A stretch of 59,519 nucleotides of DNA. It comes from Betaproteobacteria bacterium (GTDB taxonomy: Bacteria > Pseudomonadota > Gammaproteobacteria > Burkholderiales > SG8-39). Shown piece after piece: positions 42,108 through 59,519 of this stretch (positions are counted from its first letter, which is position 1; each line of letters begins with the position of its first letter). Below the pieces are notes generated by a model. That model did no database searches. It was not told the DNA's origin and worked only from the letters and a program-made list of their open reading frames with translations. The stretch spans positions 1-59,519 of the forward strand of contig SCUF01000369.1 of the NCBI GenBank assembly GCA_004298325.1, written 5' to 3'. The translations under genes and the position numbers were made by a program.

Positions 42108-42113
42108 TAGAAT

Positions 42114-44118: not shown

Positions 44119-44145
44119 CATTACCCGGTATTACTTGAGACGACC

Positions 44146-44379
44146 ATGGATGCAACGACGGTCACGAGCAAGGGTCAGGTTACGATTCCCAAGGAAGTGC
44201 GCAGGCGCTTCGGCATTCGCCAGGGAAGCCGGGTGGAGTTCGCCATCGTCGGCAACCGCATCGAAATGCGGCTGGCCAGTCGGCCGCTGGAGACGGGGAA
44301 GAGCGGTTACGGAATGCTGAGAAGCCGGCGGCGCGCGGCGCCGGCGGATCTCGACCCGGCTTCGCTCATCAAGCGCTAG
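44146..44379 (+). CDS. vapB: AbrB/SpoVT-type antitoxin VapB
   Basis: The 77-aa product has the KGQVTIPKEVRRRFGI motif. It lies upstream of the PIN gene. Confidence 0.8.
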   Translation: MDATTVTSKGQVTIPKEVRRRFGIRQGSRVEFAIVGNRIEMRLASRPLETGKSGYGMLRSRRRAAPADLDPASLIKR

Positions 44380-44388
44380 CCCGACGCC

Positions 44389-44805: not shown

Positions 44806-44837
44806 TGTTTGGCCGGTTCTAGTTCCCTAACTGTAAT

Positions 44838-44849
44838 GGGGTCAGAGTA
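44838..44849. repeat. Single REP unit flanking the 3' side of the RAYT gene
   Basis: An exact GGGGTCAGAGTA lies 26 nt from the RAYT stop codon. Confidence 0.85.
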
Positions 44850-44874
44850 ACTTTTTCCTCGCAACGACAAAGAG

Positions 44875-45603
44875 TTAGCGCGGAAGCTGCCGTTGCGGCG
44901 ATCTCTGTGAGGTGACTCCCAAGCGCGCGATGCGGGGTTCGCGCGCACGACGCAGTGCCGCGAGGACATCGGCGTTGACCCGGGCACGGAACTCTTCCGA
45001 ACCAAGGGGCCGTCCCTTGTTCAGGCAGAAGCGTATCGAATCGAGATCCTGGTGCGAAATGCCGTCGGCGAACAATTCGCCATAGGCCCGTCTGCATTCG
45101 GACGGTGTTCGTCCCAGTCGCAGATAGCACTCGTGCTCAGTGACGAGCGGGTCGCGGTGCGCGCCGGTGTAGTGCCGGTAGCTCGACCACGGGTAGTCCA
45201 GAGCCGACGCCGTCATCCCCGCGCGCACGGGGTTGTTCTCGATGTAGCGCTGGCAGACGAGGAAATACCGCTCGCTGTCGATCACGCTGGAACGGAAGCG
45301 GCCTTCCCAAAGCGTACCGGTGCGCCCGTGGATCTTGTTGAAGGTGCGTACATAGCGGCGCCCGAGATGCTGCATGAGGCCTGACACGGCGTGGGGTTCC
45401 TGCGGCGTGACCAGCAGATGCACGTGGTTCGTCATCAGCACGTAGGCATGGACCGAGCAGGCATACCGTTCGATTGCGCGGCGCAGGCAAGCGAGGTAAC
45501 GCCGGAAATCGTCGTCGCACGCAAAACATGCGCCGCGGTTATTGCCCCGCTGCACGACGTGGACCGGCACTCCCGCCAAGGCTAATCGCGGCGCTCGTGC
45601 CAT
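44875..45603 (-). CDS. REP-associated tyrosine transposase (RAYT; IS200/IS605 TnpA-like Y1 HUH enzyme)
   Basis: Has the HUH motif in LMTNHVHLLV, GRTGTLWEGRF, and the catalytic-Tyr motif QRYIENNPVRAG followed by YPWSSY. REP units in opposite orientations flank it on both sides. Confidence 0.85.
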   Translation of the reverse strand: MARAPRLALAGVPVHVVQRGNNRGACFACDDDFRRYLACLRRAIERYACSVHAYVLMTNHVHLLVTPQEPHAVSGLMQHLGRRYVRTFNKIHGRTGTLWEGRFRSSVIDSERYFLVCQRYIENNPVRAGMTASALDYPWSSYRHYTGAHRDPLVTEHECYLRLGRTPSECRRAYGELFADGISHQDLDSIRFCLNKGRPLGSEEFRARVNADVLAALRRAREPRIARLGVTSQRSPQRQLPR

Positions 45604-45659
45604 GACTGCTCGCCTCCCCCTATCCCCATGCCGCCTTCAACGCGTAGCGGCGGAAAAGG

Positions 45660-47351
45660 TTACTCCGACCCCTGACTCTGACCCCCTACTCTGACCCCAC
45701 CTTGCCATTCGATTTTGCCTTCCGCGAGATCGCGCGCCAGCGCGGCGGGATCGCGCTCGCGCGGATCGCCGTAGCCGCCGCCGCCGGCGGAGTCCATGGT
45801 GACGACGTCGCCGGGCGAGAGGCGCGTGAGGCCGTAAGGGTTGCCGGGCTGGTCGTTGACGAGGAACCGCGCGCGCGCGCCGGGTGCGCCGCCGAAGAGG
45901 CCTTCGGGCGGCAGGCTGAAACGCCCCGACTGCATCGCGAGGTGCACCGGCCCGAGCGGTGCGTGCGCATCGCTCGGCACGCGGAAGACTTCGCGCCGGC
46001 CAAGCGCGCCGCGCTGCTTGCCCGCGCCGCCCGATCCCGGCAGGAGCTCGCGCCGCTCGACGATGAGCGGCGAATCGCTTTCGAGAATCTCGACCGGCGT
46101 ATTGGCGCCGTTCGCCGGGAAGATGAACGAGCCCTCGCCGTCGCGCGCGGCGCCCGCGCCCATGCCGCCGCCGCGAATGAGCACGGTATGGAACGGCTCG
46201 CCGTCGCCGCGCCGGCCGTAGAACACCTGCATCGTCGCCGGCGTGCCGCCGCTTGCCGCGACCACGCGCTGCGGCAGCGCCTCAGCCAGCGCGCGGTAGA
46301 TGATCTCGGTCATGAAGTGGCCGATCTGCATGCGCGCCGCGACCGCCGCCGGAAAGCGGCAATTGACCACCGTGCCCTCGGGCGCGATCAGATGGATCGG
46401 CGCGGCGGCGCCGTCGTTATTGGGAATGTCCGGATCGAAGATGCTCTTCACCGCCATGTGCACGTAGGCGTAGGTGAAGTTGTAGACCACGTTGCCGCCC
46501 CAGTCGACCTGCGGCGACGAGCCCGTGAGATCGACCTGGATGTCGCTGCCATTGATCGTGACCGCGCAGCGGATGACGACGGCGGGCGCGCCTTCGGTCT
46601 GTTCGATGTGTCCTTCGGCGCGGTACACGCCCGCCGGTGCGCGCGCGATCGATTCGCGCAGGCTGCGCTCGCTGCGCGAAATGATTTCCTCCGCGAGGTC
46701 GTCGAGCGCCTCGAGCCGGTACTCCTCCAGCATGCGCACGATTCTCTCGGCGCAGACGTGATTCGCCGCGATCTGCGAGCGGATGTCGCCATTCACCTGG
46801 TCGGGCGTGCGCACGTTGGCGCGGATCATCGCGAGCACCCCTTCGTTCAGCTGCCCGGCCTCGTAGAGCTTGACGAGCGGGATGAAGAGCCCCTCCTCGA
46901 ACACGTCGTGGTTGTCGGAGGAGACGCGCCCGCCGATGTCCGAGTGGTGCAGGATGCAGGCGGTGAACGCGGCGAGCCGGTCGCGATGGAAGATCGGCGA
47001 GAGCACGCAGACGTCGTTCAGGTGCCCTGCGAGTGCCCAGGGGTCATTGGTGATGTACACGTCGCCGGGGCGGAAACTTTCAGGCGGGAGCTTGCGCACC
47101 AGGTTCTTGATGCCGAGTGCCATCGCGCCCGACTGCCCCGGCGTGGCGAGCGTGCCCTGCGCGAGCTCGCGCCCTTGCCGATCGGTGAACATGCAGGTGT
47201 AGTCGTGGCCATCGCGCAGGATGCTGGAGAACGCCGTGCGCGCGACGGCCGCATCGGCCTCGTCGACGATCGAGATCAGGCGCCGCCAGAGGATTTCGAG
47301 GGTGATGGGGTCGAATTTTGGCTTCGGCGCTTGGACTTCGCGTTGGTTCAT
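45660..47351 (-). CDS. hyuB: Hydantoinase B / oxoprolinase-family protein (ATP-dependent lactamase/carboxylase beta-type subunit)
   Basis: Has DPITLEILWRRLISIVDEA at the N-terminus and the family pattern throughout. The start is the ATG at 47351. The tail GGVRVGGQSQGSE-TAA is REP-encoded. Confidence 0.85.
   Translation of the reverse strand: MNQREVQAPKPKFDPITLEILWRRLISIVDEADAAVARTAFSSILRDGHDYTCMFTDRQGRELAQGTLATPGQSGAMALGIKNLVRKLPPESFRPGDVYITNDPWALAGHLNDVCVLSPIFHRDRLAAFTACILHHSDIGGRVSSDNHDVFEEGLFIPLVKLYEAGQLNEGVLAMIRANVRTPDQVNGDIRSQIAANHVCAERIVRMLEEYRLEALDDLAEEIISRSERSLRESIARAPAGVYRAEGHIEQTEGAPAVVIRCAVTINGSDIQVDLTGSSPQVDWGGNVVYNFTYAYVHMAVKSIFDPDIPNNDGAAAPIHLIAPEGTVVNCRFPAAVAARMQIGHFMTEIIYRALAEALPQRVVAASGGTPATMQVFYGRRGDGEPFHTVLIRGGGMGAGAARDGEGSFIFPANGANTPVEILESDSPLIVERRELLPGSGGAGKQRGALGRREVFRVPSDAHAPLGPVHLAMQSGRFSLPPEGLFGGAPGARARFLVNDQPGNPYGLTRLSPGDVVTMDSAGGGGYGDPRERDPAALARDLAEGKIEWQGGVRVGGQSQGSE
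45661..45698. repeat. Three tandem inverted REP units flanking the 5' side of the RAYT gene
   Basis: TACTCCGACCCC lies at 45661..45672, GACTCTGACCCC at 45674..45685 and TACTCTGACCCC at 45687..45698, giving a 13-nt period. The array also encodes the last 13 codons of hyuB. Confidence 0.9.
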
Positions 47352-47368
47352 ATTTGAAGTTCCCCGTT

Positions 47369-47407
47369 CTGCCGGCTTGCCGCGAGATTCATGCGGCAAG
47401 CCGGCAG
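47369..47407 (-). other. Perfect 15-bp stem / 9-nt loop hairpin in the hyuA-hyuB intercistronic spacer
   Basis: CTGCCGGCTTGCCGC (47369..47383) and GCGGCAAGCCGGCAG (47393..47407) are exact reverse complements. No U-tract follows on the transcribed (minus) strand. Confidence 0.8.
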
Positions 47408-47442
47408 ATCTATGAGAATCAAAAAAGGCGCTGACCGATGCA

Positions 47443-49524
47443 TTACGCTTCCCGTTTCTGAATCCAGAGAAACCCGTAATCGTCGACCTCCACCTTCCCG
47501 TCCTCCCCCACGATCACGGTCGATTCGCGCTCCTCGATGATCGCCGGGCCCTCGAAGCTCGCGTCGGGGAAGAGCTTGTAACGGTCGTAGACCGTGTGCG
47601 CAACGAATTCGTGCGCGATCCCCGAATACGCGCGCCGCTCGCACTTCACCGCGTCGCTGGCGCGGCCGCCCGCCGGCCGCGCGAGCTTCGGCAGCTCGAG
47701 CAGCTGCACCGGCAGGCTCGCGCGGACGCTGAAGTTGACGAACTCCACGGGAGACTCGGGGTAGGTGCGGCCGTAGAGCCGCTCGTATTCGGCGTCGAAG
47801 TTGCGGCGCAGCTCCTCGCGGTCGAGCTTTGCGAAATCGCCCTGCGGCACGGGGAGATAGGTTTCCGATCCTTGCCCGATGAAGCGTGCGTCCACCGAGC
47901 GCGCGAACTCAATGCGACCGTCAGCTCCTGCGCGGCGCAGGGTGCGCTCGCCCTCGGCTTCGAGGGCGCGGAAGATTCTCTCGATCTCGGCAAAATCCGC
48001 CGTGGCGAGCGGCGTCTTGTGGCTGCGCACGAGGTCGAACGCCCGCGGCGCGGTGAAAAAGCCGAGCGCCGAGCCTACGCCCGCGTTGGGCGGCACGATG
48101 AGGCAGGGCGCGCCGAGTTTGCGCGTCAGGCCCCAGGCGTGTACCGGCCCCGCGCCGCCGAACGCGGCCACCGTCGCCACGCGGGGATTGCCGCCGCGTT
48201 CCGCGATGTGCGTCTTGGCGGCGGCCGCCATGGTCTCGTTGATCAGGTCGTGGATGCCCCAGGTCGCCTCGATGAAGGAAACGCCGAGCGGCTTCGCCAC
48301 ATGTTCCTCGATGCCGCGGCGCGCCGCCGCCGCATCGAGCTTCATCGTCCCGCCGAGGAAATACCCGGCGTCGAGGTAGCCGAGCAGAAGATCGGCGTCG
48401 GTCACGGTGGGAAGCGTGCCGCCGCGCCCGTAGCAGATCGGCCCGGGTTCGGCGCCCGAGCTGTCGGGGCCCACCTGCAGCGTGCCCAGGCGGCTCCTGC
48501 GCGCGAGGCTGCCGCCGCCCGCGCCGATCTCCATCAGGTCCACCACCGGCACCTGGATCGTGAGCCCGCTGCCTTTCATGAAGCGCTGCACGCGCCCGAC
48601 TTCGAAGGTCGGCACGATGCCGGCGACGCCGCCCTGGATGAGGCAGGACTTGGCCGTGGTGCCGCCCATGTCGAAGCAGAACATCTCGGGCAGATCAAAG
48701 AGGCGGCTGAAGTACTGGCCCGCGATCACCGCCGCGGTCGGGCCGGATTCGATGATGCGCACCGGAAATTCGGCCGCGGTTTCGGCGGAGGTCACGCCGC
48801 CGGAGGAGAGCATGATGAACAGCCGCCCGTGAAAGCCGATGCCGGCGAGGCGCTCGGCCAGCCGGCGGAGGTAGGTTTCGGTGAGCGGCTTGACGTAGGC
48901 GTTGGTGACCGTGGTGCTGGTGCGCTCGTACTCGCGGATCTGCGGCAGCACCTCGGCGGAGATCGAGACCGAGGCGCCGGGGAATTCTTCGGCGAGGATG
49001 CGTTTCAGCGCCCGCTCGTGCGCCGGATTCTCGAAGGAATTGAGCAGGCATACGGCGACCGACTCGGCGCCCAGAGCCTGCAGCGCGCGCACCGTCTCGC
49101 GCGCCGCGCTTTCGTCCAGCGGCTGCAGCACGCTGCCGTCGGCGCGCACGCGCTCGTTCACCTCCAGCCGGCGCTGGCGCGGCACGAGCGGCTCGGGCAT
49201 TTCGGCGAAGACATCGTAGGCGGCGTAGCGGATCTCGCGCCCGAGCTCCAGCACGTCGCGAAACCCCCGTGTCGTGATGAGCCCCGTGCAAGCGCCTTTG
49301 CGCTCGATGATGGCGTTGATGACGAGCGTGGTGCCGTGGATCACTTCCTCGAGCCGCGCCGTGCAGCCGGGAAGCTGCGCTTCGAGCGCCCTCAAGCCGG
49401 CCTCGATCGCGTCCGAGGGGTCGCGTGGCGTGGTGAGGCACTTCCAGGTCTCGATGCGCCCGCCCGAGTCGTCCAGCAGGACGAAGTCGGTGAAGGTGCC
49501 GCCCACATCGATGCCCACCCGCAT
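47443..49524 (-). CDS. hyuA: Hydantoinase A / oxoprolinase-family protein (alpha-type subunit)
   Basis: Has MRVGIDVGGTFTDFVLL at the N-terminus. The ATG at 49524 is preceded by AAGGAGG. The 240-codon upstream extension in the track is antisense to the GntR gene. Confidence 0.85.
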   Translation of the reverse strand: MRVGIDVGGTFTDFVLLDDSGGRIETWKCLTTPRDPSDAIEAGLRALEAQLPGCTARLEEVIHGTTLVINAIIERKGACTGLITTRGFRDVLELGREIRYAAYDVFAEMPEPLVPRQRRLEVNERVRADGSVLQPLDESAARETVRALQALGAESVAVCLLNSFENPAHERALKRILAEEFPGASVSISAEVLPQIREYERTSTTVTNAYVKPLTETYLRRLAERLAGIGFHGRLFIMLSSGGVTSAETAAEFPVRIIESGPTAAVIAGQYFSRLFDLPEMFCFDMGGTTAKSCLIQGGVAGIVPTFEVGRVQRFMKGSGLTIQVPVVDLMEIGAGGGSLARRSRLGTLQVGPDSSGAEPGPICYGRGGTLPTVTDADLLLGYLDAGYFLGGTMKLDAAAARRGIEEHVAKPLGVSFIEATWGIHDLINETMAAAAKTHIAERGGNPRVATVAAFGGAGPVHAWGLTRKLGAPCLIVPPNAGVGSALGFFTAPRAFDLVRSHKTPLATADFAEIERIFRALEAEGERTLRRAGADGRIEFARSVDARFIGQGSETYLPVPQGDFAKLDREELRRNFDAEYERLYGRTYPESPVEFVNFSVRASLPVQLLELPKLARPAGGRASDAVKCERRAYSGIAHEFVAHTVYDRYKLFPDASFEGPAIIEERESTVIVGEDGKVEVDDYGFLWIQKREA

Positions 49525-49555
49525 GACGCGCCTCCTTGACGCTTGGCGGCTGAAA

Positions 49556-49568
49556 GTATACCGTATAC
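49556..49568. promoter_or_regulatory. Candidate GntR-family operator in the divergent hyuA/gntR promoter region
   Basis: GTATAC-C-GTATAC forms two abutting GTATAC palindromes containing the perfect inverted repeat TATAC-c-GTATA. It lies in the 54-bp gap between the divergent starts. The GT..AC cores fit FadR/GntR-type operators. Confidence 0.35.
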
Positions 49569-49578
49569 AGTACACGTC

Positions 49579-50241
49579 ATGTCCCCGGCCCTGCAAGTCC
49601 TCGAGCGCGCCCTGCCGCTCGGCGACCGCGTCTACGCGACGCTGCGCGACTACCTGCGCGCGGGGCGCCTCGCGACCGGGCATCCGCTGCAGGAAGCCGC
49701 GCTCGCGGCGCAGCTCGGGGTGTCGCGCACGCCCGTGCGCGAGGCCCTGGCGCGGCTCGCGAGCGAGGGGCTGGTGGTGGCCGAGGGCCGCAGCTTCACG
49801 GTCCCCGCGCTCACCGACGCCGACATCCGGGACATCTACGAGCTGCGTTTCCTGCTCGAGCCGCAGGCGCTGAGCGAAATCGCGCAAAGCCGGCCCGGCC
49901 GCAAGGAGCTCGCGCCGCTCCGGAAGGCGCTCGACGACATGGCCGCTGCGCACGAAGACGGCGACGGCGCCGAATTCATGGAAGCCAATTACCGCTTCCG
50001 CGCCGAGTGGATGGCGCGGGTGCCCAACCGGCGCCTCGCGCGCGCGATCGAGCTCTACGCCGATCACGTGCGGTACTTGCGCGCCTTCACGCTCGGCGAG
50101 GCCGGGGTGCGCGCCAGGGTGCTGAAGGGGCTCAAGCGCCTGGTGGCGACGCTCGAAGCCGCAGACGGCGAGGGCGCCGCCGCGGCGATGCTCGCGCATC
50201 TCGACACAGCCAAGAGGATCCTGCTGGAAAGGAAGGCATGA
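49579..50241 (+). CDS. GntR-family transcriptional regulator with FCD-type C-terminal domain
   Basis: Has the wHTH segment LAAQLGVSRTPVREALARLASEGLV and a helical C-terminal domain. The start is the ATG at 49579. Confidence 0.85.
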   Translation: MSPALQVLERALPLGDRVYATLRDYLRAGRLATGHPLQEAALAAQLGVSRTPVREALARLASEGLVVAEGRSFTVPALTDADIRDIYELRFLLEPQALSEIAQSRPGRKELAPLRKALDDMAAAHEDGDGAEFMEANYRFRAEWMARVPNRRLARAIELYADHVRYLRAFTLGEAGVRARVLKGLKRLVATLEAADGEGAAAAMLAHLDTAKRILLERKA

Positions 50242-50242
50242 C

Positions 50243-51448
50243 ATGACCTACAAGGCGGAAATTCCGTATGGCGCCTACTGGAGCACGCCGTTTGCGCGCT
50301 GGCAGGGGGCGTTCGCCAACCTGAACGCGCTCGAATTCGCGGCGCACGTGACGAAGAAGGAGCTCGCGCGGCGCGGCATCGAGCCGGGGGTGTTCGATCA
50401 CGGCGTGCTCGGCTTCAGCGTGCCGCAAAAGCACTCGTTCTACGGCCTGCCGTGGCTCTCCGGCATGGCGGGCGTGGGCCAGGCGGGCGGGCCTACCCTG
50501 ATGCAGGCCTGCGCCACGGGGGTGCGCGTGCTGCTCGCGGGGGTGCAGGAAATCGAGTGCGGCCTGTCGGAGGTGGCGCTCACCGTGACCTGCGACCGCA
50601 CTTCGAACGGCCCGCACCTGTATTACCCCAATCCGCGCGCACCCGGCGGCACCGGCGCGCACGAGGACTGGGTGATGGACAACTTCAGCTTCGATCCGCT
50701 GGGCAAGCACGCCATGATCCGCACCGCGGAAAACGTCGCCGCCAAGCACAAGATCTCCACCGCCGAGCAGCACGCGGTGGTGCTGAAGCGCGAGGCGCAG
50801 TACCGCGAGGCGCTGGCGAACGACAGCGCCTTCCACAAGCGCTTCATGACGCTGCCCTTCGAGGTTCCCGATCCCGCCTACCGCAGGACGGCGACGACGA
50901 TCACGGGCGACGAGGGCGTCAATTACTCCACCGCCGAAGGCCTTGCCAAGCTGCGCCCGGTGGTGGAAGGCGGCAGCGTCACCTTCGGCGGCCAGACGCA
51001 TCCGGCCGACGGCAACGCAGCCATCGTACTGGCCGCGCCCGGGCGCGCGAGGGAACTCAGCAAGGACCCGAAGATCCGCGTGCGCCTGCTCGGCTTCGGA
51101 CAGTCGCGCGCCGCGCTCGCCTACATGCCGGAGGCGCCCATCCCCGCGGCGCAGAAAGCGCTCGCGCAGGCGGGGCTCGGTTTCGGCGATATGGACGCGA
51201 TCAAGACGCACAATCCCTTCGCGGTGAACGACGTGCTCTTTTCGCGCAGCACGGGCGTGCCGCTCGAGCGGGTGAACAATTACGGCTGCTCCCTGGTGTG
51301 GGGGCATCCGCAGGCGCCGATGGGCACGCGCGGCGTCATCGAGCTGATCGAGGAGCTCGCGCTGCGCGGCGGCGGCCGAGGCCTGTTTACCGGTTGCGCG
51401 GCGGGCGACACCGCGATGGCGGTGGTGCTGGAGGTGACCGGCGCGTGA
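50243..51448 (+). CDS. Thiolase-family protein (acetyl-CoA C-acyltransferase-like)
   Basis: Has the LMQACATGVRVL (nucleophile Cys) region, a GHPQAPMGTRG segment, and a C-terminal GCAAGDTAMAVVLE. Confidence 0.75.
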   Translation: MTYKAEIPYGAYWSTPFARWQGAFANLNALEFAAHVTKKELARRGIEPGVFDHGVLGFSVPQKHSFYGLPWLSGMAGVGQAGGPTLMQACATGVRVLLAGVQEIECGLSEVALTVTCDRTSNGPHLYYPNPRAPGGTGAHEDWVMDNFSFDPLGKHAMIRTAENVAAKHKISTAEQHAVVLKREAQYREALANDSAFHKRFMTLPFEVPDPAYRRTATTITGDEGVNYSTAEGLAKLRPVVEGGSVTFGGQTHPADGNAAIVLAAPGRARELSKDPKIRVRLLGFGQSRAALAYMPEAPIPAAQKALAQAGLGFGDMDAIKTHNPFAVNDVLFSRSTGVPLERVNNYGCSLVWGHPQAPMGTRGVIELIEELALRGGGRGLFTGCAAGDTAMAVVLEVTGA

Positions 51449-51457
51449 AAGTCATCG

Positions 51458-52972
51458 ATGGACCTGTCGGCCTGGATTGAGCGGCACGCGGCGTTCGCGC
51501 CGGCGAAGACCGCGCTGCGCTTCGGCGACGAGGCGATCGGCTACGGCGCGCTCGCGCAGCACATTGCGCGCGTGGCGGGGGCGCTCGCCGCGCTGGGCGT
51601 GAAGCCGCGCGATGCGGTGGCCTATCTCGGCCTCAACCATCCGGACGCGCTCGCGCTGCTTTTTGCCTGCGCGCGGCTCGGTGCGATGTTCATGCCGCTC
51701 AACTGGCGCCTCGCGCCCGCGGAGCACGCGCGCATGCTCGCCGATTGCCCGCCGCGGCTGCTCTACGTGGAAGGCGCGTTCGCCGCGCACGCGAAGGCGA
51801 TTACGGCGATCCCGCAGTCGACCCGCCAGCTGCCGCTCGATCGCGAGACGTGGCGTGTCGCCGCCGGCACGGTGCCGCGCGAGGGCGACGAGAGCTCGCC
51901 GCTGCTCCTGTGCTACACCTCGGGCTCGACCGGCGCGCCGAAGGGCGTGGTGCTGACGCAGCGCGCGCTGTTCTACAACGCGGTCAACAGCAGCCACATG
52001 CACGATCTGACGAGCGCCGACCGCGTGCTGACGACGCTGCCGCTGTTTCACGTCGGCGGGCTCAACATCCAGACCACGCCGGCGCTGCACGCGGGTGCCA
52101 CGGTCACGTTGCATCCGAAGTTCGACCCGCTCGCGGCGCTCGAGGCGATCGAGCGCGAGCGCATCACCCTCGCCGTGCTGGTGCCGGCACAGCTCCAGGC
52201 GATGATGCAGACACCGCGCTGGCAAAGCGCCGACCTTTCGAGCCTGCGCATGATCACCACCGGCTCCACGATCGTCCCGGCAGCGTTCGTGAGCAAGGTG
52301 AACGCGCGCGGCGTGCCGCTCATCCAGGTCTACGGCTCCACCGAGACCTGCCCGATCGCGAGCTACGTGCGCGCCGCGGATGCCGAGCGCAAGGCCGGCT
52401 CGGCCGGCGTGCCGGCACTGCATTGCGAGATCCGCATCGCGGGCGACGACGGCCGCGAGCTGCCGGCGGGACGCGACGGCGAGATCCTGGTGCGTGGCCC
52501 GAACGTGGCGACGGGCTACTGGAACGCGCCGGAACTGAGCGCGCAGACCTTTGCCGAGGGCTGGTACCGCTCGGGCGACATCGGCCATTTCGACGCCGAA
52601 GGGCATCTCCATGTCGTGGCGCGAAAGAAGGACATGATCATCTCGGGCGGCGAGAACATCTACCCGGCGGAGCTGGAGAACATCCTGCTCGAAGCGCCCG
52701 CGGTGCAGGAGGCCTGCGTCGTGGGGCGGCAGGACGAGCGCTGGGGCGAGGCCGTGGTCGCGGCGGTGGTGCTGAAGGCCGGCAGCCGCATGAGCGAGGC
52801 CGAGGTGATGGCGCTCTTCCAGGGACGGATCGCGCGCTACAAGCAGCCGCGCGAGGTGCGCTTTCTGGCGCAGCTGCCCAGGAGCGCGCTCGGCAAGATC
52901 CTCAAGGACGAGGTGCGCACGGCGGTCGCGCAGGCGGCGGCCGGGCCGGCGAGGCGGGCGCATGGACTTTGA
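51458..52972 (+). CDS. AMP-dependent acyl-CoA synthetase/ligase
   Basis: Has the AMP-binding motif LCYTSGSTGAPKGVVLT, plus YGSTET, GDIGHFDAEGHLHVVARKKDMI and a conserved C-terminal K. Confidence 0.85.
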   Translation: MDLSAWIERHAAFAPAKTALRFGDEAIGYGALAQHIARVAGALAALGVKPRDAVAYLGLNHPDALALLFACARLGAMFMPLNWRLAPAEHARMLADCPPRLLYVEGAFAAHAKAITAIPQSTRQLPLDRETWRVAAGTVPREGDESSPLLLCYTSGSTGAPKGVVLTQRALFYNAVNSSHMHDLTSADRVLTTLPLFHVGGLNIQTTPALHAGATVTLHPKFDPLAALEAIERERITLAVLVPAQLQAMMQTPRWQSADLSSLRMITTGSTIVPAAFVSKVNARGVPLIQVYGSTETCPIASYVRAADAERKAGSAGVPALHCEIRIAGDDGRELPAGRDGEILVRGPNVATGYWNAPELSAQTFAEGWYRSGDIGHFDAEGHLHVVARKKDMIISGGENIYPAELENILLEAPAVQEACVVGRQDERWGEAVVAAVVLKAGSRMSEAEVMALFQGRIARYKQPREVRFLAQLPRSALGKILKDEVRTAVAQAAAGPARRAHGL

Positions 52973-54095
52973 ACTGCGCGACGAGCAGCGCGCCATCCGG
53001 GAAGCCTTCGCGCGCTTCAGCGACGAGCGCATCGCGCCGCGTGCCGCCGCGCTCGATGCGGCGCACGCTTTCCCGCGCGAGCTGTTCGGCGAACTCGCGG
53101 CGATGGGGCTGTTCGCCATGCGCTACCCGGAAGACGCGGGCGGCAGCGGCACCGGGCTCACCGAGTTCTGCCTCGCGCTGGAAGAGATCGCGCGCGGCTC
53201 GCTGTCGCTCGCCGGGTGTGCGGCGATGCAATCGCTCATGGGAACGAAATTCCTGCACATGCTCGGCAATGCGGACGTGCTCGAGCGCCTGTTCAAGCCG
53301 GCGCTCAGGGGCGAGAAGATCGGCGCCATCTGCATGACCGAGCCGAACGCGGGTTCCGACCTCGAAGGCATCGCCACCACGGCGAAAAAGGTCGCGGGCG
53401 GCTACCGCCTGAACGGGCAGAAGACCTGGGTCACCTCCGCCCGGGTGGCGGACTTCTTCACCGTGTTCGCCCGGGCGGGCGAGGCGAAGAAACTCACCAT
53501 CTTCCTGGTAGAGCGTTCGTCCGCCGGCCTCGCGATCGGGCGGCAGATCGAGAAGATGGGCGTCTGGGCGATGCCGACCTCCGAGCTCGCCTTCGACGAC
53601 TGCTTCGTGCCCGACGGCCTTCGCCTGTCGCGCGAGGAAGGCGACGGCGAAGGGCACCTGAGGAAGACGCTTGCCGAGATCCGCATCATCACCGGCGCGA
53701 TGGCCAACGGCGTGGCACGCGCGGCGCTCGAAGCGGCGCTGCGCTACGCGGGCGAGAGAAAGCAGTTCGGCAAGCCGATCAACCGCTACCAGGCGATCCA
53801 GATGAAACTGGCGGAGATGGCCACCGGGCTCGAGGCGGCGGTGCAGCTCGTGTACCGCGCCGCCTGGCTGCACGACGCGGGCAAGCCCCACCACAAGGAG
53901 GCGGCGATGGCGAAGCTCTTCGCGAGCGAAACCGCGGCACGCGTCTGCGACCAGGCCGCGCGCGTGTTCGCCTCCTACGGCTACGCCATGGAATATCCCG
54001 TGCAGCGCTACCTGCGCGACGTGCGCTTCACCCTCATCGGCGGCGGCACGAGCGAGATCCTCAAGCTCATCATCGCCAAGGAGCTGAGCCAATGA
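52962..54095 (+). CDS. Acyl-CoA dehydrogenase
   Basis: Has ICMTEPNAGSDL, a QFGKPI segment, and a C-terminal YEGTSEI-like GGGTSEILKLIIAKEL. Confidence 0.9.
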   Translation: MDFELRDEQRAIREAFARFSDERIAPRAAALDAAHAFPRELFGELAAMGLFAMRYPEDAGGSGTGLTEFCLALEEIARGSLSLAGCAAMQSLMGTKFLHMLGNADVLERLFKPALRGEKIGAICMTEPNAGSDLEGIATTAKKVAGGYRLNGQKTWVTSARVADFFTVFARAGEAKKLTIFLVERSSAGLAIGRQIEKMGVWAMPTSELAFDDCFVPDGLRLSREEGDGEGHLRKTLAEIRIITGAMANGVARAALEAALRYAGERKQFGKPINRYQAIQMKLAEMATGLEAAVQLVYRAAWLHDAGKPHHKEAAMAKLFASETAARVCDQAARVFASYGYAMEYPVQRYLRDVRFTLIGGGTSEILKLIIAKELSQ

Positions 54096-54107
54096 ACCCG
54101 CCAAAAA

Positions 54108-54153
54108 GGGGTCAGGACCCTTTTTCGATATGTGCTAATTGGGTCCTGACCCC
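54108..54153. repeat. Variant palindromic element related to the REP family
   Basis: GGGGTCAGGACCC (54108..54120) and GGGTCCTGACCCC (54141..54153) are exact reverse complements with a 20-nt spacer. They share the GGGGTCAG core with the main REP. Confidence 0.8.
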
Positions 54154-54162
54154 TTATTCCAT

Positions 54163-54555
54163 ATGAACCGGCCGATCAAGGTGGTGGTCGCGAAGCCCGG
54201 GCTGGACGGCCACGACCAGGGCGCGAAGGTGGTGGCGCGCGCGCTCATGGACGCCGGCATGGAAGTGATCTATACCGGTCTGCGGCAGACGCCGGAAGCC
54301 GTGGCGCGCATCGCGCAGGACGAGGACGCCGACGTGATCGCGCTTTCGTCTATGGCGGGCTCGCACGTGCCGTTCTGCGAGAAACTCAAGCCGCTCCTCG
54401 AGCAGGCGGGGCTTTCCGACAAGCTCTGGGTGATCGGCGGCAACCTGCCGAAGCAGGACCACGCGCGGCTGAAGGAACTGGGGTTCCGCGGCGTGTTCCC
54501 CTCCAGCTCGCGCCTGGACGACATCGTCAATTTCGTGAAGGCGAACGTGGCATGA
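54163..54555 (+). CDS. Cobalamin-binding small subunit of a split acyl-CoA mutase
   Basis: Has the DxHxxG motif in GLDGHDQGAKV and SSMAGSH. It is 130 aa, starting at the ATG at 54163. Confidence 0.85.
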   Translation: MNRPIKVVVAKPGLDGHDQGAKVVARALMDAGMEVIYTGLRQTPEAVARIAQDEDADVIALSSMAGSHVPFCEKLKPLLEQAGLSDKLWVIGGNLPKQDHARLKELGFRGVFPSSSRLDDIVNFVKANVA

Positions 54556-56159
54556 ACGATCGACTGAAACTGCGGCCGGTGACGAACGAATCCGGCATCG
54601 AGATCCAGCCGCGCTACGGCGCCATGGACGTGGAGGCGAGCGGCGGCTTCGGCTTTATCGGAGAGCCGGGCGAGTACCCCTTCGTGCGCGGCATCCACCC
54701 GCAGATGTACCGCCAGCGGCCGTACACGATGCGCCAGTACACCGGCTTCGGCAATCCGGCCGACACCAACCAGCGCTTCAAGTACCTGATCGCGAACGGG
54801 CAGACGGGCCTCAACGTGGCCTTCGACCTGCCCACGCAGTGCGGACTGGATTCGGACGATCCGCTCGCGCACGGCGAAGTGGGCCGGGTCGGCATGGCGG
54901 TCGACACGTTGCGCGATTTCGAGATCGCGTTCGATGGCATCGACCTCGACAAGATCACGGTGTCGCTCACGGTGAACGGCGCCGCGCCGCAGCTGATCGC
55001 GATGTACCTCGCGATGGCGGAAAAGCGCGGCTACGACGTGGCGAAGCTGCGCGGCACGGCACAGAACGACATCCTCAAGGAATTCATCGGCCGCGGCACC
55101 TGGATCTACCCGGTCGAGCCCTCGGTGCGGCTGGTGGGCGACACGATCGAGTATTGCGCGCGCCACGCGCCCAAGTACAGCCCGGTGTCGGTGTGCGGCT
55201 ATCACATCCGCGAATCCGGCGCCAACCCGGTGCAGGAGATGGCCTACGCCTTCTGCATCGCCAGGGCCTACGCCGACGACGCGCTCGCGCGGGGGCTCGA
55301 TATCGACGCGTTCGCCGGGCGCCTGTCTTTCAATTTCAACGTCTTCGGCAGCATCTTCGAGCAGGTTTGCAAGTTCCGCGCCGCGCGCGGGCTGTGGGCG
55401 AAGATCGTGAAGGAGCAATACGGCGCGAAGCAGCCCGAGTCCGGGTGGCTGCGGATGATCGCGGGCGGCGGCGGCGGCGGGCTCACCTTCGAGCAGCCCG
55501 AGGTCAACATCGTGCGCGGCGCGTACTACGCGCTGATCGCGGCGCTCGGCGGCGCGCAGACCATGGCGCTGTGCTGCTTCGACGAGGCCTATACCATCCC
55601 GACCGAGTACGCGCAGCGCATATCGCTGCGCACGATGCAGCTCCTGATCGAGGAGATGGGGCTCGCCGACACGGTGGATCCGCTCGGCGGCTCGTGGTTC
55701 GTAGAGACGCTCACCAACCAGATGCGGCAGAAGATGGAAGAGACGATGGCCGAGGTCGATGCGCAGGGCGGCATCGTCAAGCTCGTCGCCGAGGGCGCGA
55801 TCCAGGCCAAGGTCTCGGCGCAGGCCTACCGCATGCAGCGCGCGATCGAGTCGGGCGAGTTCCGCAAGGTCGGCGTCAACTGCTACCGCAACGAGCAGGC
55901 CGACGACCTCGAAGTGCAGATGCACCCGTACAAGGAAGAGGACACGCGGCGCCAGATTGCAAGCCTGGAGGGCGCGCGCGGCGCGCGCGACGTGAGGCGC
56001 GTGGGCGAAGCGCTGGCGAAGGTCCGTGGCGCGGCCGAAGGCGGGGCCAACGTCATGCCGGCGGTAGTCGAGGCGGTGAAGGCCTACGCCACGGTCGGCG
56101 AAATCACCCAGCAGCTCGCCGGCGTCTACGGCCGCTATCGCGAACCCGTACGCTTCTAA
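54552..56159 (+). CDS. Methylmalonyl-CoA-mutase-family catalytic (large) subunit
   Basis: Has MRQYTGFG, NQRFKYLIANGQTGLNVAFDLPTQ, GTAQNDILKEF, CGYHIRESGA and VDPLGGSWFVE. It overlaps the small-subunit gene by 4 nt. Confidence 0.9.
   Translation: MNDRLKLRPVTNESGIEIQPRYGAMDVEASGGFGFIGEPGEYPFVRGIHPQMYRQRPYTMRQYTGFGNPADTNQRFKYLIANGQTGLNVAFDLPTQCGLDSDDPLAHGEVGRVGMAVDTLRDFEIAFDGIDLDKITVSLTVNGAAPQLIAMYLAMAEKRGYDVAKLRGTAQNDILKEFIGRGTWIYPVEPSVRLVGDTIEYCARHAPKYSPVSVCGYHIRESGANPVQEMAYAFCIARAYADDALARGLDIDAFAGRLSFNFNVFGSIFEQVCKFRAARGLWAKIVKEQYGAKQPESGWLRMIAGGGGGGLTFEQPEVNIVRGAYYALIAALGGAQTMALCCFDEAYTIPTEYAQRISLRTMQLLIEEMGLADTVDPLGGSWFVETLTNQMRQKMEETMAEVDAQGGIVKLVAEGAIQAKVSAQAYRMQRAIESGEFRKVGVNCYRNEQADDLEVQMHPYKEEDTRRQIASLEGARGARDVRRVGEALAKVRGAAEGGANVMPAVVEAVKAYATVGEITQQLAGVYGRYREPVRF
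55464..55481 (+). repeat. (GGC)5GGG triplet microsatellite encoding Gly6 inside the mutase large subunit
   Basis: It reads directly as ggc ggc ggc ggc ggc ggg, in frame (residues 305-310). Confidence 0.9.
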
Positions 56160-56161
56160 TT

Positions 56162-56240
56162 GGGGTCAGAGTACGGGGTCAGAGTCAAGCGAACGAGAGG
56201 TAACTATATGACAGATCAACAAAAATCTTACTCTGACCCC
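56162..56240. repeat. REPIN (two forward REP units plus one inverted unit, 42-nt spacer)
   Basis: GGGGTCAGAGTA lies at 56162..56173, GGGGTCAGAGTC at 56175..56186 and TACTCTGACCCC at 56229..56240. Confidence 0.9.
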
Positions 56241-57095
56241 ATTTCCTATGCGGCGCCACGCACGCTCGACGAGGCGGCGGCGCTGCTGAGCGCGGGCAAC
56301 GTCACGGTGCTCGCGGGCGGCACGGACCTCATGCCGCAGACGCAGTCGGGCAAAGTGAAATTCAAGCCGCTGCTGATGAACGTCCGGCGGGTGGCCGGAT
56401 TGGGCGGCATCGCCGAAGCCGCAGGAACGATCCGCATCGGCGCGCTCGCCACGATCACGGAATTGCTGCAGAGCGAGCTGGTGCGCGACCGCCTGGGCAT
56501 CCTGTGGCAGGCGTGCGAGCACTTCGCGAGCGACCAGATCCGCAACGCGGCGACGATCGGCGGCAACGTCTGCAATGCGTCGCCCGCGGGGGACACGCTG
56601 GTGCCGCTGCTCGCGCTGAATGCCCGCGTGCTGCTCGTCAGCAAGCCGAACGGGGCGCTCGTGGAGCGCCGCCTGCCGCTCGCGGGATTCTTCGTCGCGC
56701 CGGGCCGCTCGCAGCTCGCCGCGTCCGAATTGCTTGCTGCCGTCGAAGTGCCGCTGCCGCCGCGCGGCTTCGCAGGCGAATTCTTCAAGTTCGGCACGCG
56801 GCCCGGGCTCGACATCTCGGCGATCTCGATGGCGCTCGGCGGCGTGCGCGAGAACCGGACGCTGCGCGACGTGCGCGTCGCCTTCGGTGCCGTCGCGCCG
56901 ACCCCGATCCGCGGCCCGAAAACCGAGGCCGCGCTCGAAGGCCGCACGCTCGATGCTGCGGCGATCGAAACCGCGGTTGCGGCGGCGCTGGCCGACATCC
57001 GCCCGATCAGCGACGTGCGCGCCACCGACTGGTACCGGCGCGAGCTGGTCGGCAACCTACTGCGAAGGATGCTTTCCCATGTCTGCGAACGTTGA
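56208..57095 (+). CDS. Molybdenum hydroxylase FAD-binding (medium, CoxM-like) subunit
   Basis: Has VLAGGTDLMPQ and an FAD_binding_5-type pattern. The ATG at 56208 lies inside the REPIN spacer, 7 nt after GAGAGG. The N-terminal MTDQQKSYSDP is REPIN-encoded. Confidence 0.85.
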   Translation: MTDQQKSYSDPISYAAPRTLDEAAALLSAGNVTVLAGGTDLMPQTQSGKVKFKPLLMNVRRVAGLGGIAEAAGTIRIGALATITELLQSELVRDRLGILWQACEHFASDQIRNAATIGGNVCNASPAGDTLVPLLALNARVLLVSKPNGALVERRLPLAGFFVAPGRSQLAASELLAAVEVPLPPRGFAGEFFKFGTRPGLDISAISMALGGVRENRTLRDVRVAFGAVAPTPIRGPKTEAALEGRTLDAAAIETAVAAALADIRPISDVRATDWYRRELVGNLLRRMLSHVCER

Positions 57096-57570
57096 AATCG
57101 ACTTCACGCTGAACGGCGTCGGGCGGCGCGTCTCGGTGACCCCCGGGATGAGCGCGCTCACCCTGCTGCGCGACGTGCTCGACCTCACCGGCACCAAGTA
57201 CGGCTGCGGCGAGGGCGAATGCGGCGCCTGCACCATCCGCGTCGATGGCGTGACGGTGAATTCCTGCCTCATGTTCGCGGTCGACTGCGATGGCCGCGAG
57301 GTGGTGACGATCGAAGGTTTGGCGTCCGATCCGCGCGCGCAGCGCCTGCAGCAGAAATTCGTGGAGCACGGCGCGGTGCAGTGCGGCTTCTGCACGCCGG
57401 GTCTGGTGATGCAGGCGAATCACCTGCTGGACGTGCATCCCCATCCCGGCGCCGCCGAAGTCCAGCGCGGCATCGAAGGCAATCTCTGCCGCTGCACCGG
57501 CTACAAGAAAATCGTCGAAGCGATCCAGGACTCGGGGTCAGAGTCCGTTAGATCGGAGCTAACTCTATGA
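57079..57570 (+). CDS. Molybdenum hydroxylase [2Fe-2S] (small, CoxS-like) subunit
   Basis: Has CGEGECGACT, CGFCTPG and CRCTGY. The start is the ATG at 57079. The tail SGSESVRSELTL-TGA is REPIN-encoded. Confidence 0.9.
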   Translation: MSANVEIDFTLNGVGRRVSVTPGMSALTLLRDVLDLTGTKYGCGEGECGACTIRVDGVTVNSCLMFAVDCDGREVVTIEGLASDPRAQRLQQKFVEHGAVQCGFCTPGLVMQANHLLDVHPHPGAAEVQRGIEGNLCRCTGYKKIVEAIQDSGSESVRSELTL

Positions 57571-57599
57571 GCGCAATGGAAAAAACTTACTCTGACCCC
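57534..57599. repeat. REPIN (inverted REP doublet, 42-nt spacer)
   Basis: GGGGTCAGAGTC lies at 57534..57545 and TACTCTGACCCC at 57588..57599. Confidence 0.9.
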
Positions 57600-59519
57600 A
57601 AGTTCTCCTCGCTGATCGGCAAGCGCATTCCGAAGATGGATGCGCCGGAAAAGGCGGGCGGGAGGACGCGCTACATCCACGACATCAATCTGCCGGGGCA
57701 GCTCTGGGGGAAGATCCTGCGCTCGACGCAGGTGCACGCGCGCATCCGCTCGATCGACACGAGCGCGGCGAAGGCCCTGCCGGGCGTGCACGCCGTGATC
57801 ACCGCGGCCGACGTGCCCTGGCAGCGGCCGATCGGCGTGGCGAAAGACCACCTGCCGCTCAAGACCGATCGCGTGCGCAGCCCGCGCGACGAGATCGCCG
57901 CGGTGGCCGCCGACTCGCCCGAGATCGCCGCGGCCGCGCTGAAGCTCATCCGCGTCGAGTACGAGCCGCTGCCGGCGCTGATCGATCCGGTCGAGGCGCT
58001 GCAACCCGGTGCGCCGCTGATTCACCCCGAGCCGCACGGCGGCGACGGCGGGCCGGCGCTCAAGCCCGGCGCGCCGATCGCCTTTGCCGGCAAGCCCGAC
58101 AACGTCGCGATGACTTTCGAATACGCGCAGGGCGACGTGGCGCAGGGCGAAGCGTCCTCCGACATGGTGATCGAAGACGTGTTCCACCTGCATTACGTCA
58201 CGCACTGCTGCATGGGCGTCTCGGGCGTGATCGCCGAGTTCGACGCCACCGGCAATCTGCTGCTTTACTCCAACACCCAGGTGCCGTTCCTCCATAAGCG
58301 CGAGTTCGCCGAACTGCTCAACATCGATCCGGGCCGCATCCGCATCATCCAGCCGCCGATCGGCGGCGGCTTCGGCTCCAAGCTCGACATCTATCCCTTC
58401 GAGCCGATCGCGATCTTTCTCGCCAAGGCGACGCACCGGCCGGTGAAGCTCGTCTTCACGCGCGAGGAGGAATTCGCCGCCTCGCCCACGCGCCAGCCGG
58501 TGCTGCTGAAGCTGCGCTCGGGCTGCACCCGGGACGGCACGCTCACCTTCCGTGCCGTGGAGACCCTGCACGACAACGGCGCCTACACTTCCTGGGGCGC
58601 GACGACGCCGTTCGTCATGATGCAGACGATCTCGTCGCTGTACCGCGTGCCGCACTGCAAGTACCTGACGCGCGCCGTCTACACCAACAACCCCTACGCG
58701 GGGTCGTTTCGCGGCTACGGCAACCTGCAGGCGACCTTCGCGGTGGAAGCTCACATGGACAAGCTCGCGGCGGCGATCGGCATGGATCCGCTCGATTTCC
58801 GCCTCAGGAACGCACAGGACCCGGGCGAAGTGACGCCGCAGGGGATGCACTTCAAGTCCTGCGGCTTCAAGCAATGCCTCTCGAGTGCCGCGGCGCGCAG
58901 CGACTACCAGAAGAAACACCGCGCGTACGCCGCGCGCCAGAAAGACGCGGATCCCGTCAAGCGCGGCGTCGGCATGGCCTCGATGCTGCACGTCGGCGGC
59001 GGCGCCAAGATCTATCCGTCGGACGGCTGCGGCACGATCCTCAAGATCGACGATTTCGCGCACCTCACGCTGATCACCGGCGCCTCCGAAATCGGGCAGG
59101 GCTCGGAGACCGTGCTGGCGCAGCTGGTGTGCGAGGAACTGGGCCTGCCGCTTTCGGCGGCGACGGTGGTGAACAACGACACCGACATCACGCCCTGGGA
59201 CGTCGGCGTGCACGCTTCGCGCACCACCTTCATCGCCGGCAATTCGGCGATCGGCGCCGCGCGCAAGGCGAAAGCGAAAATTCTCGGCGCGGCCGCCGCC
59301 AAGCTGGGACAGCCGGCCGAGGCGCTCGAGCTGCGCGGCGGCTTCGTGGTGCAGAAAGCCGACGGCCTGCAGCTGCTGGATCTCGGCAAGTTCCTGCGTT
59401 CGCTGCACTTCTCCGACAAGGCGGAGCTCGTGATGACGACCTTCTATTACGAGCCGCCGAGCAAGCACCAGGACCGGCAGTTCAAGGGCGACGTCTCGGC
59501 CGCCTACGCCTGGGCGACG
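57567..59519 (+). CDS. Molybdenum hydroxylase molybdopterin-binding (large, xanthine-dehydrogenase-family) subunit; 3' end lies outside the window
   Basis: This ORF is not in the supplied track. My hand translation from the ATG at 57567 (ATGA overlap with the upstream stop) gives MSAMEKTYSDPKFSSLIGKRIPKMDAPEKAGGRTRYIHDINLPGQLWGKILRS.. It also gives QPPIGGGFGSKLD, NPYAGSFRGYGN and a final QFKGDVSAAYAWAT. I saw no stop in the stretches I translated. The frame reaches the window end after 651 codons. Confidence 0.85.
   Translation, partial: MSAMEKTYSDPKFSSLIGKRIPKMDAPEKAGGRTRYIHDINLPGQLWGKILRSTQVHARIRSIDTSAAKALPGVHAVITAADVPWQRPIGVAKDHLPLKTDRVRSPRDEIAAVAADSPEIAAAALKLIRVEYEPLPALIDPVEALQPGAPLIHPEPHGGDGGPALKPGAPIAFAGKPDNVAMTFEYAQGDVAQGEASSDMVIEDVFHLHYVTHCCMGVSGVIAEFDATGNLLLYSNTQVPFLHKREFAELLNIDPGRIRIIQPPIGGGFGSKLDIYPFEPIAIFLAKATHRPVKLVFTREEEFAASPTRQPVLLKLRSGCTRDGTLTFRAVETLHDNGAYTSWGATTPFVMMQTISSLYRVPHCKYLTRAVYTNNPYAGSFRGYGNLQATFAVEAHMDKLAAAIGMDPLDFRLRNAQDPGEVTPQGMHFKSCGFKQCLSSAAARSDYQKKHRAYAARQKDADPVKRGVGMASMLHVGGGAKIYPSDGCGTILKIDDFAHLTLITGASEIGQGSETVLAQLVCEELGLPLSAATVVNNDTDITPWDVGVHASRTTFIAGNSAIGAARKAKAKILGAAAAKLGQPAEALELRGGFVVQKADGLQLLDLGKFLRSLHFSDKAELVMTTFYYEPPSKHQDRQFKGDVSAAYAWAT

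Follow-up and report, generated by a model that had tools for sequence, protein, structure and literature searches.

In the 59,519-nucleotide (nt) contig SCUF01000369.1 from an uncultured Burkholderiales genome (assembly GCA_004298325.1), which as a whole is called the window in the following, a short dispersed repeat of the repetitive extragenic palindromic (REP) type provides the last or the first codons of several neighbouring genes, even at two junctions within a molybdenum (Mo)-hydroxylase operon. The repeat is a genuine mobile family of REP sequences and their hairpin-forming inverted doublets (REPINs), and the term REPIN as used in the initial annotation of the window is justified by a gene resembling REP-associated tyrosine transposase (RAYT) genes, situated in the window between inverted copies of the repeat. 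With high probability, the repeat-borne gene termini arose because REPINs spread through a compact genome in the ordinary way and selection then favoured those copies that keep the genes working. The initial annotation had proposed that gene termini are written by the repeat, which is true of the stop codons and, in at least three genes, of the sole usable start codon; its extension to a built-in cassette of stop codon, ribosome-binding site and start codon is not supported, as the repeat copy flanking the transposase gene possesses TTG and neither GGAG nor GAGG, and further copies start elsewhere.

Rebuilt junctions in the Mo-hydroxylase operon

Two REPINs, A and B (coordinates of all features in Table 1), occupy the junction of the mutase gene with the FAD-binding subunit gene and of the 2Fe-2S subunit gene with the Mo-binding subunit gene, respectively. 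REPIN A begins 2 nt past the mutase stop codon. At the second junction, the 2Fe-2S subunit ends with ..AIQD SGSESVRSELTL and the TGA at 57568-57570, with which the ATG of the Mo-binding subunit gene at 57567 overlaps as ATGA; beyond its repeat-encoded residues, the Mo-binding subunit continues with KFSSLIGK. The spacers of the two REPINs agree at 24 of their 44 positions (P = 1.4e-4 from composition), with the ATG at positions 23-25 in both and 7-8 nt after GAGG or GGAG, a motif resembling a Shine-Dalgarno (SD) sequence. Pfam places the beginning of FAD_binding_5 at residue 12 and the end of Fer2_2 at residue 150 of 163, both outside the repeat-encoded residues. Direct reading of frames and domain boundaries consequently agrees with the initial annotation with respect to the REPIN-encoded tail of the 2Fe-2S subunit, the start/stop overlap, the onset of family sequence outside the REPIN-derived residues and the starts in or through the inverted arm (MTDQQKSYSDP, MSAMEKTYSDP and, for 3-deoxy-D-arabino-heptulosonate 7-phosphate (DAHP) synthase, MTNLTLTP). 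Equally, its count of 22 identical positions among 42, with the ATG at the same offset in both spacers, is recovered, the arms having been delimited slightly differently. A scan for promoters and terminators detected no such signals within REPINs A or B and no U-run after the hairpins, and because the two REPINs are devoid of promoter-like and terminator-like signals, the operon is probably still one transcript.

The ancestral condition of these junctions can be addressed by comparison, as had been recommended with the initial annotation. A metagenome scan with the FAD-binding subunit returned 80 related loci, among which the repeat core is present in a single one, L121 (84% identity); L122-L145 are without the core, L122-L127 being approximately 70% identical. 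In repeat-free loci the mutase stop codon abuts or nearly abuts the ATG of the FAD-binding subunit gene, for example in ttcTAGATGacggacatcgag, which reads RF-stop followed by MTDIETY; ttcTAGATGacggacatcgagACCTAT likewise reads RF-stop and then MTDIETY at the native mutase/FAD junction, and further native starts of the FAD-binding subunit are MAGIERY, MGIERY and MAVEEY. At the second junction of the repeat-free loci, the 2Fe-2S end ..AIAAAADAATQGAEHGRR-stop overlaps the Mo start MGAAEKPAAKDTLIGKR (MGAAEKP..LIGKR). Native termini of repeat-free orthologues are thus different from those in the window. L121 carries REPINs at both same junctions, with 44-nt spacers and the ATG at positions 23-25, and the frames are kept as MIEHQKSYSDP-HSY in the FAD-binding and MAANPKTYSDP-NFSLIGK in the Mo-binding subunit. 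The 2Fe-2S open reading frame (ORF) of the window crosses the left arm to the ATGA, whereas its counterpart in L121 already ends at the left-arm TAA, 33 nt before the ATG (..AIQQSGSE-stop). The operon junctions thus show presence/absence polymorphism at orthologous sites, with a REPIN in the window and L121 and none in L122-L145. The native junctions of the repeat-free loci together with the in-frame REPINs of L121 argue that the repeat-borne termini are derived, unlike the native ones, and have been retained in frame through substantial divergence.

Are the start codons within the repeat used? In the FAD-binding subunit gene, the reading frame offers no further canonical start past the arm before codon 33, a GTG that already belongs to the FAD-binding domain, and in the Mo-binding subunit gene the next start is an ATG located after the universally conserved LIGKRIPK. 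In DAHP synthase, the next in-frame start is M21, past the invariant L13, N15, N17 and V18. Without another in-frame start ahead of the conserved domains, the repeat-borne ATGs of these three genes are, judged from their reading frames, almost certainly used.

The repeat family in the window and in other genomes

The repeat was defined by its 11-nt core GGGGTCAGAGT and counted with at most one mismatch, with 100 shuffled sequences as control. The window contains 19 matches, with 0.63 expected, and 0 of the 100 shuffles reach this number. All 19 copies are confined to 41030-57599, at seven sites within 17 kb, and a search with two mismatches yielded additional matches elsewhere in the window at chance level only. 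The first 41 kb (1-41000) are without the repeat, which extends from approximately 4 kb upstream to 12 kb downstream of the transposase gene; this clustering agrees with an earlier observation of new REP copies arising by preference close to rayt (PMC2817692). Units occur as tandem 13-nt arrays (41030-41079, 45660-45698), as a single unit (44838) and as four inverted pairs, REPINs C, D, A and B, with spacers of 45, 66, 44 and 44 nt and a spacer GC content of 36-45% versus 68% in the surrounding DNA. As RNA, the four inverted pairs fold into hairpins with minimum free energies of -27.5 to -37.9 kcal/mol and z-scores of -2.6 to -6.5, all REPINs taken together being long hairpins with z-scores of -2.6 to -6.9; in REPINs A and B, a stem of at least 11 bp closes a loop of 44 nt, in the middle of which is the ATG. 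The 11-nt core itself is not self-complementary, and GTAG appears in the window only through the tandem linker AG.

An Rfam search of 40.5-58 kb, with an E-value threshold, matched no family. Literature string searches with the core 10-mer and 11-mer returned eukaryotic primer coincidences only, and a literature search on miniature inverted-repeat transposable elements (MITEs) that supply start or stop codons produced nothing useful. A target-site duplication of the MITE type is not found around REPIN B (gactc..aagtt), and the AATT/ATT flanks at the remaining REPINs belong to the inverted symmetry and not to a target-site duplication, so that the elements do not resemble classical MITEs. An uptake signal or a protein-binding motif, suggested by the 11-mer being exact and taxonomically widespread, was considered and dropped in view of the flanked transposase gene and the site polymorphism.

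Beyond the window, at least 120 stretches that contain the inverted pair were identified by a pattern scan covering one genome per species. Among the stretches listed, Beta- and Gammaproteobacteria and Gemmatimonadota are represented, flanks and spacers are lineage-specific and many copies occur per contig. In these loci (L001-L120), the flanks of the core are weakly complementary to each other, with a mean stem of 2.52 versus 1.49 in shuffled pairs, and hence each unit can fold back into a small hairpin, the loop of which is formed by the conserved core. An ORF of at least 150 codons ends at 21 of 209 core-plus-stop sites in the 120 loci listed, with 7.5 expected (P = 3e-5). Tails ending in GSE-stop are accordingly a recurrent but minority outcome, with approximately 6-10% of core-plus-stop sites ending long ORFs.

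A RAYT-like transposase gene between inverted repeat copies

The gene at 44875-45603 is the likely mobilising enzyme of the repeat family, as far as its sequence and surroundings indicate. The product matches Pfam Y1_Tnp (E 2.8e-14), and REP_Tyr_transpos is the best NCBIfam model with 72.7 bits versus a cut-off of 80, the IS200 model scoring only 20.9 bits. The best match in PDB is Escherichia coli TnpAREP (4ER8, E 0.016), with the HxH (HvH) and Y..NPV motifs aligned, and one relative of the transposase carries the JGI name REP-associated tyrosine transposase. The gene is bracketed by inverted units, a forward one at 44838 and three reverse ones at 45662-45698. It is syntenic, between the genes for DAHP synthase and the tetratricopeptide repeat (TPR)-like protein on one side and hyuB on the other, in L201, L203, L204 and L205, all metagenomic contigs or contigs of metagenome-assembled genomes (MAGs), where inverted units are again found on both sides of the transposase gene. 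In a gammaproteobacterial MAG, a RAYT with 46% identity adjoins the same core, and in L035 a unit is located upstream of the RAYT gene. A RAYT-like transposase gene with inverted repeat flanks, here as in syntenic relatives, therefore points to a REP/REPIN-RAYT arrangement. The transposase gene was found via synteny only; an all-against-all clustering of ORFs in the 120 repeat-bearing genome loci revealed no enriched protein family. As an independent observation, L204 possesses a second Y1 transposase paralogue (2344-3018, 35% identity) flanked by a different palindrome, AAAAAGGGAAGCGTCCCCTTTTT, so that one genome hosts two pairs of transposase and repeat.

Repeat-written termini around the transposase gene

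Upstream of the operon, the repeat delimits a series of genes from wecA to hyuB (Table 1). The WecA-like protein ends with CTG GGG TCA GAG TAG (LGSE-stop, stop codon 41040-41042) and DAHP synthase with TTG GGG TCA GAG TAA (LGSE-stop, 43254-43256), while hydantoinase B (HyuB) reads across three 13-nt units to the tail GVRVGGQSQGSE-stop with the stop codon at 45660-45662. That all three proteins end in GSE-stop, as proposed beforehand, was confirmed by direct reading of the sequence; the HyuB tail had been ascribed 13 repeat-encoded residues, of which the repeat origin and the stop codon hold, the correct number being 12 residues plus the stop.

The array of tandem units at 41030-41094 folds as a hairpin of -46.9 kcal/mol, and the galE stop codon lies 3 nt past it. 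Furthermore, galE (minus strand, start 42107) and the DAHP synthase gene (plus strand) diverge from a gap of only 63 nt (42108-42170) that is made up entirely of repeat sequence. Both promoters must reside either in this repeat sequence or within the genes on either side. In a promoter scan of REPIN C, the sole promoter-like match begins at the DAHP synthase ATG itself and is not useful.

The start of the TPR-like protein is ambiguous. The long ORF from GTG 43285 crosses the inverted arm as TLTP (..RFTLTPICL..) and gives a plausible, signal-peptide-like N-terminus, while the gene call in the protein database is ATG 43363, downstream of the repeat. Close relatives show every variant, being called with and without the extension, and one reads the arm in the other frame without a hydrophobic stretch; distant homologues have native signal peptides. 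Of the earlier proposal that the arm is read through and forms the signal peptide, the open frame is borne out and the signal peptide uncertain.

Table 1. Repeat elements and repeat-bordered genes, with positions in the window
Feature	Positions	Strand	Remarks
WecA-like glycosyltransferase gene	39978-41042	plus	last 4 codons and stop in first repeat unit
REP array	41030-41094	plus	four tandem 13-nt units (GGGGTCAGAGTAG) and one inverted unit
REPIN C	42114-42193	plus	two forward units, 45-nt spacer, inverted arm; contains DAHP synthase ATG 42171
DAHP synthase gene	42171-43256	plus	first 8 codons (MTNLTLTP) and last 4 codons/stop repeat-encoded
REPIN D	43244-43331	plus	forward arm, 66-nt spacer, inverted arm; gives DAHP synthase stop
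TPR-like protein gene	43285-44103	plus	start uncertain: GTG 43285 in REPIN D or ATG 43363 past REPIN D
Repeat unit and inner flank directly 3' of transposase gene	44838-44888	plus	core at 44838-44848
RAYT-like Y1/HUH transposase gene	44875-45603	minus	242 aa; Pfam, NCBIfam, PDB match, synteny
Three tandem 13-nt units between HyuB gene and transposase start	45660-45698	minus	reverse units 45662-45698
HyuB (hydantoinase B) gene	45660-47351	minus	repeat-encoded C-terminal extension
REPIN A	56162-56240	plus	two forward units, 44-nt spacer (GAGAGG, TAACT box, ATG 56208), inverted arm
FAD-binding subunit gene	56208-57095	plus	first 11 codons (MTDQQKSYSDP) repeat-encoded, then ISY..
2Fe-2S subunit gene	57079-57570	plus	last 12 codons and stop repeat-encoded
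REPIN B	57534-57599	plus	forward arm, 44-nt spacer (GGAG, TAACT box, ATGA 57567-57570), inverted arm
Mo-binding subunit gene	57567-59519	plus	first 11 codons (MSAMEKTYSDP) repeat-encoded; runs off window

Relatives of these genes likewise occur with and without repeat-borne ends. In the closest clade of the DAHP synthase, the protein has an MTNLTLTP-like start and often an LGSE end, one member showing in-frame LGSES repeats, and repeat-free relatives of at most 84% identity start with MNVRRSP and end with ..RDLGAALERRRALA (..GAALERRRALA). HyuB takes its stop codon from the repeat in the window, L201 and L204, and in L203 it has the native end ..AEGKI-stop with the repeat 2 nt past the stop codon. 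The tandem period is 15 nt in L203 (158-183, 1234-1274) and L204 (9821-9893, 11083-11123) versus 13 nt in the window, and the ORFs there consequently contain LGSES repeated in frame; in reverse, the AATG linker of L203 and L204 gives an ATG in each 15-nt unit, at one of which the L203 DAHP synthase begins (MTLTP).

Probable origin of the repeat-borne termini

In the account that we consider highly probable, the repeat family would be mobilised by the adjacent single-copy RAYT-like transposase and would have spread over the gene boundaries in the approximately 17 kb around the transposase gene. Genes in this genome are packed with hardly any DNA between them, native operon junctions abutting or overlapping, so that insertions would fall on gene termini, and the present copies would be the survivors that left both neighbours functional. 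An upstream ORF entering the forward unit would stop in one frame at the TAA or TAG after the core, which yields LGSE-stop, and in the other frames at the next stop codon in the AT-rich spacer; with a period of 13 nt, three units offer a stop codon in all three frames, which would account for the end of HyuB. A downstream ORF would begin at an ATG or GTG of the spacer and then pass through the inverted arm, of which two frames are open (YSDP and TLTP). At the mutase/FAD and 2Fe-2S/Mo junctions, the same 66-nt REPIN subtype would have replaced the native coupled junction.

The spacer of this subtype may descend from the transposase gene. The right halves of the REPIN A and B spacers align gap-free to the 3' flank of the transposase gene (reverse complement of 44838-44888), in the window as well as in L121, and the aligned stretch begins with G[CG]TAACT, includes the ATG position and an A-run and ends at the arm. 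The TAA of the TAACT box corresponds to the transposase stop codon, followed by its 3' flank. For bacterial interspersed mosaic elements (BIMEs), it has been described that the segments between REPs take up the rayt 3' end (Nunvar 2010; PMC2817692). The right half of the spacer would therewith derive from the transposase stop codon and the adjoining flank, and the ATG of the spacer would now act as start codon.

A more far-reaching interpretation sees in this REPIN subtype a portable module of stop codon, ribosome-binding site and start codon, which has been shaped by selection on the element itself and can insert into operons without loss of downstream expression. GAG[GC]TAACTnnATG is indeed found at the same positions of a 44-nt spacer in four copies (A and B of the window and of L121), both junctions belong to one operon and are occupied in the sole orientation that offers the ATG, and the ATG is centred in the hairpin loop of REPINs A and B. 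Nevertheless, we regard this interpretation as unlikely. The copy flanking the transposase gene has TTG at the position of the ATG and CCGCG at the position of the SD-like motif; REPIN C has TTG at the homologous position and the ATG used is located 10 nt downstream in another frame; the spacer of REPIN D is unrelated, with a GTG start elsewhere, if used at all; in L203 the DAHP synthase ATG belongs to AATG, the linker joining two tandem units of 15 nt; and REPINs of other genomes possess unrelated spacers. As REPINs A and B may share one founder, the four copies represent at most two independent events. The TAACT box, being the transposase stop codon and its 3' flank, is not an evolved ribosome-binding module, and we infer that the SD-like motif and the ATG were fixed or retained by selection on particular insertions and are not built into the element.

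Similarly doubtful is a role of the 66-nt REPIN as a translational coupling device, in which the upstream ribosome, on reaching or entering the left arm, must melt the stem for downstream initiation, with the SD-like motif and the AUG presented at the apex. If true, the repeat would actively set the stoichiometry of the FAD-binding, 2Fe-2S and Mo-binding subunits, which would then be why operons keep such REPINs.

Much less probable still is that two insertions of single units trapped the native starts of the FAD-binding and Mo-binding subunit genes between them, in which case the repeat would supply neither start codon nor SD-like motif. The variable 12 nt after the ATG are loosely native-like, MTD equalling the MTD of L124 and MSAMEK resembling MGAAEK, and in-frame REP insertions inside ORFs are described in an earlier survey (PMC3733652). 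MTD occurs, though, in only 1 of approximately 15 orthologues, and besides the ATG and the A-run the identity to native codons is at chance level (5/11 and 3/12). What led to rejection is that the 44-nt spacing and the ATG position are the same in all four copies at two unrelated junctions, and that the stretch from the TAACT box to the arm aligns gap-free with the transposase 3' flank, where no gene of the FAD or Mo type starts.

Finally, an annotation artefact, whereby the repeats would be extragenic, the true starts located past the inverted arms and the N-termini over-extended ORF calls, is scarcely credible even with the caution, in Di Nocera 2013 (PMC3733652), that many REPs at the N-termini of ORFs reflect mis-called starts, and with the TPR gene call past the arm and the relatives called in both ways, as no in-frame ATG, GTG or TTG is present between the arm and the conserved, invariant residues of the FAD-binding subunit, the Mo-binding subunit and DAHP synthase, the C-terminal read-in is independent of annotation and the frames across the arms stay open in L121, L201 and L203.

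Several points weigh against REPIN colonisation followed by selection. The transposase remains below the NCBIfam cut-off for REP-associated tyrosine transposases. An empty site was sought among the relatives, and none closer than approximately 70% identity was found. The native termini look as if they had been exchanged and not just interrupted, an outcome that simple insertion leaves unaccounted for: MNVRRSP changes to MTNLTLTP at nearly equal length, and there is no relic of the native 2Fe-2S tail or of the native Mo head. The ATG and the SD-like motif are present in all four in-operon copies, and a founder REPIN could already have carried both. Use of the repeat-borne ATGs and SD-like motifs we infer from the absence of alternatives. 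Equally, the number and placement of the copies refer to 59.5 kb of the genome.

Relation to known repeat systems

Nearest to the repeat of the window are REP/REPIN-RAYT systems (Nunvar et al. 2010, PMC2817692; Bertels & Rainey 2011, PMC3116915), which share with the window a single Y1/HUH gene between inverted copies of a short repeat dispersed nearby, the occurrence of singlets, tandem clusters and hairpin-forming inverted doublets, the vertical maintenance of the transposase at a syntenic site with copies concentrated near rayt, and the rayt 3' end with its downstream flank within inter-REP segments. On the other hand, the core is 11 nt long here, is not a palindrome and lacks a fixed GTAG tag, and the transposase is longer (242 aa) and below the RAYT cut-off. 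A classic REP unit is an imperfect palindrome of 20-40 nt with a GTAG or CGTC tag, which the present repeat is not; the class characterised by terminal inverted repeats (TIRs) fits better.

To this class belong the TIRtrons/TIRYTs, RAYT-like genes flanked by inverted repeats sharing GGGGWSAS, as presented by Di Nocera, De Gregorio & Rocco 2013 (PMC3733652). The start of the core, GGGGTCAG, fits GGGGWSAS (W = T, S = C, A, S = G), and the organisation as singles, dimers and clusters, some self-complementary tracts and the spread across phyla are further likenesses. Length and signature residues would set TIRYT transposases apart from RAYTs, with which the 242 aa and the sub-threshold RAYT score of the transposase in the window agree. 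The likeness is drawn via GGGGWSAS, not via the full 11-mer or the transposase subgroup. The system in the window is probably a REP/REPIN-RAYT system of the GGGGWSAS TIR type, the overlap of such repeats with ORF termini having already been surveyed in 2013 (PMC3733652). In the survey, palindromic repeats inside ORFs or at their N- or C-termini are translated as short peptides, and many N-terminal cases were regarded as likely annotation errors; in the window, several adjacent genes take the start or stop codon itself from the repeat, and three of them have no alternative start. Operon junctions rebuilt from such repeats are not among the contents of the part consulted.

The window is not the only setting in which repeats and coding sequence coincide. 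Rickettsia palindromic elements, described by Ogata et al. in 2000, reportedly reside within ORFs and are translated as short peptide segments. E. coli REPs near stop codons are said to modulate translation of the upstream gene, with ribosome stalling and tmRNA tagging, in the work of Liang, Rudd and Deutscher of 2015. A stable hairpin at or near the stop codon that is met by the terminating ribosome is common to the latter REPs and the window, with the difference that the stop codon is inside the repeat here.

Replacement of in-operon junctions kept in two lineages is a neat and tractable example, not surprising to the specialist, and does not constitute a new kind of element. In fact, the REPIN-type repeats of the window are not strictly extragenic, as they overwrite last and first codons even inside an operon, and termini rebuilt in this way can persist through speciation. 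For genome annotation, this means that repeat-encoded N-termini should not be trimmed automatically, and that LGSE-stop tails and ..YSDP or ..TLTP heads flag repeat-borne termini. The two operon junctions are suited for testing the use of a start codon enclosed in a REPIN hairpin and its dependence on upstream translation.

Gene content at repeat-bearing sites

Some differences in gene content accompany the repeat. L201 possesses, in the region 7041-8922, a gene for a 610-aa CapD-like protein between wecA and galE, which the window lacks; the four-unit array of the window is situated precisely at this wecA/galE junction, and a variant palindrome, GGGGTCAGGTCCGAGACCTGACCCC, is found at the 3' end of wecA in L201. 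The position of the array together with the variant palindrome suggests a repeat-mediated deletion. In L204, two extra genes, for a glyoxalase and an abhydrolase, are situated between galE and the DAHP synthase gene. Finally, an ORF for a PIN-domain (VapC-like toxin) protein is located on the plus strand at 44389-44805, between the TPR gene and the transposase gene (Pfam PIN, E 1.7e-9).

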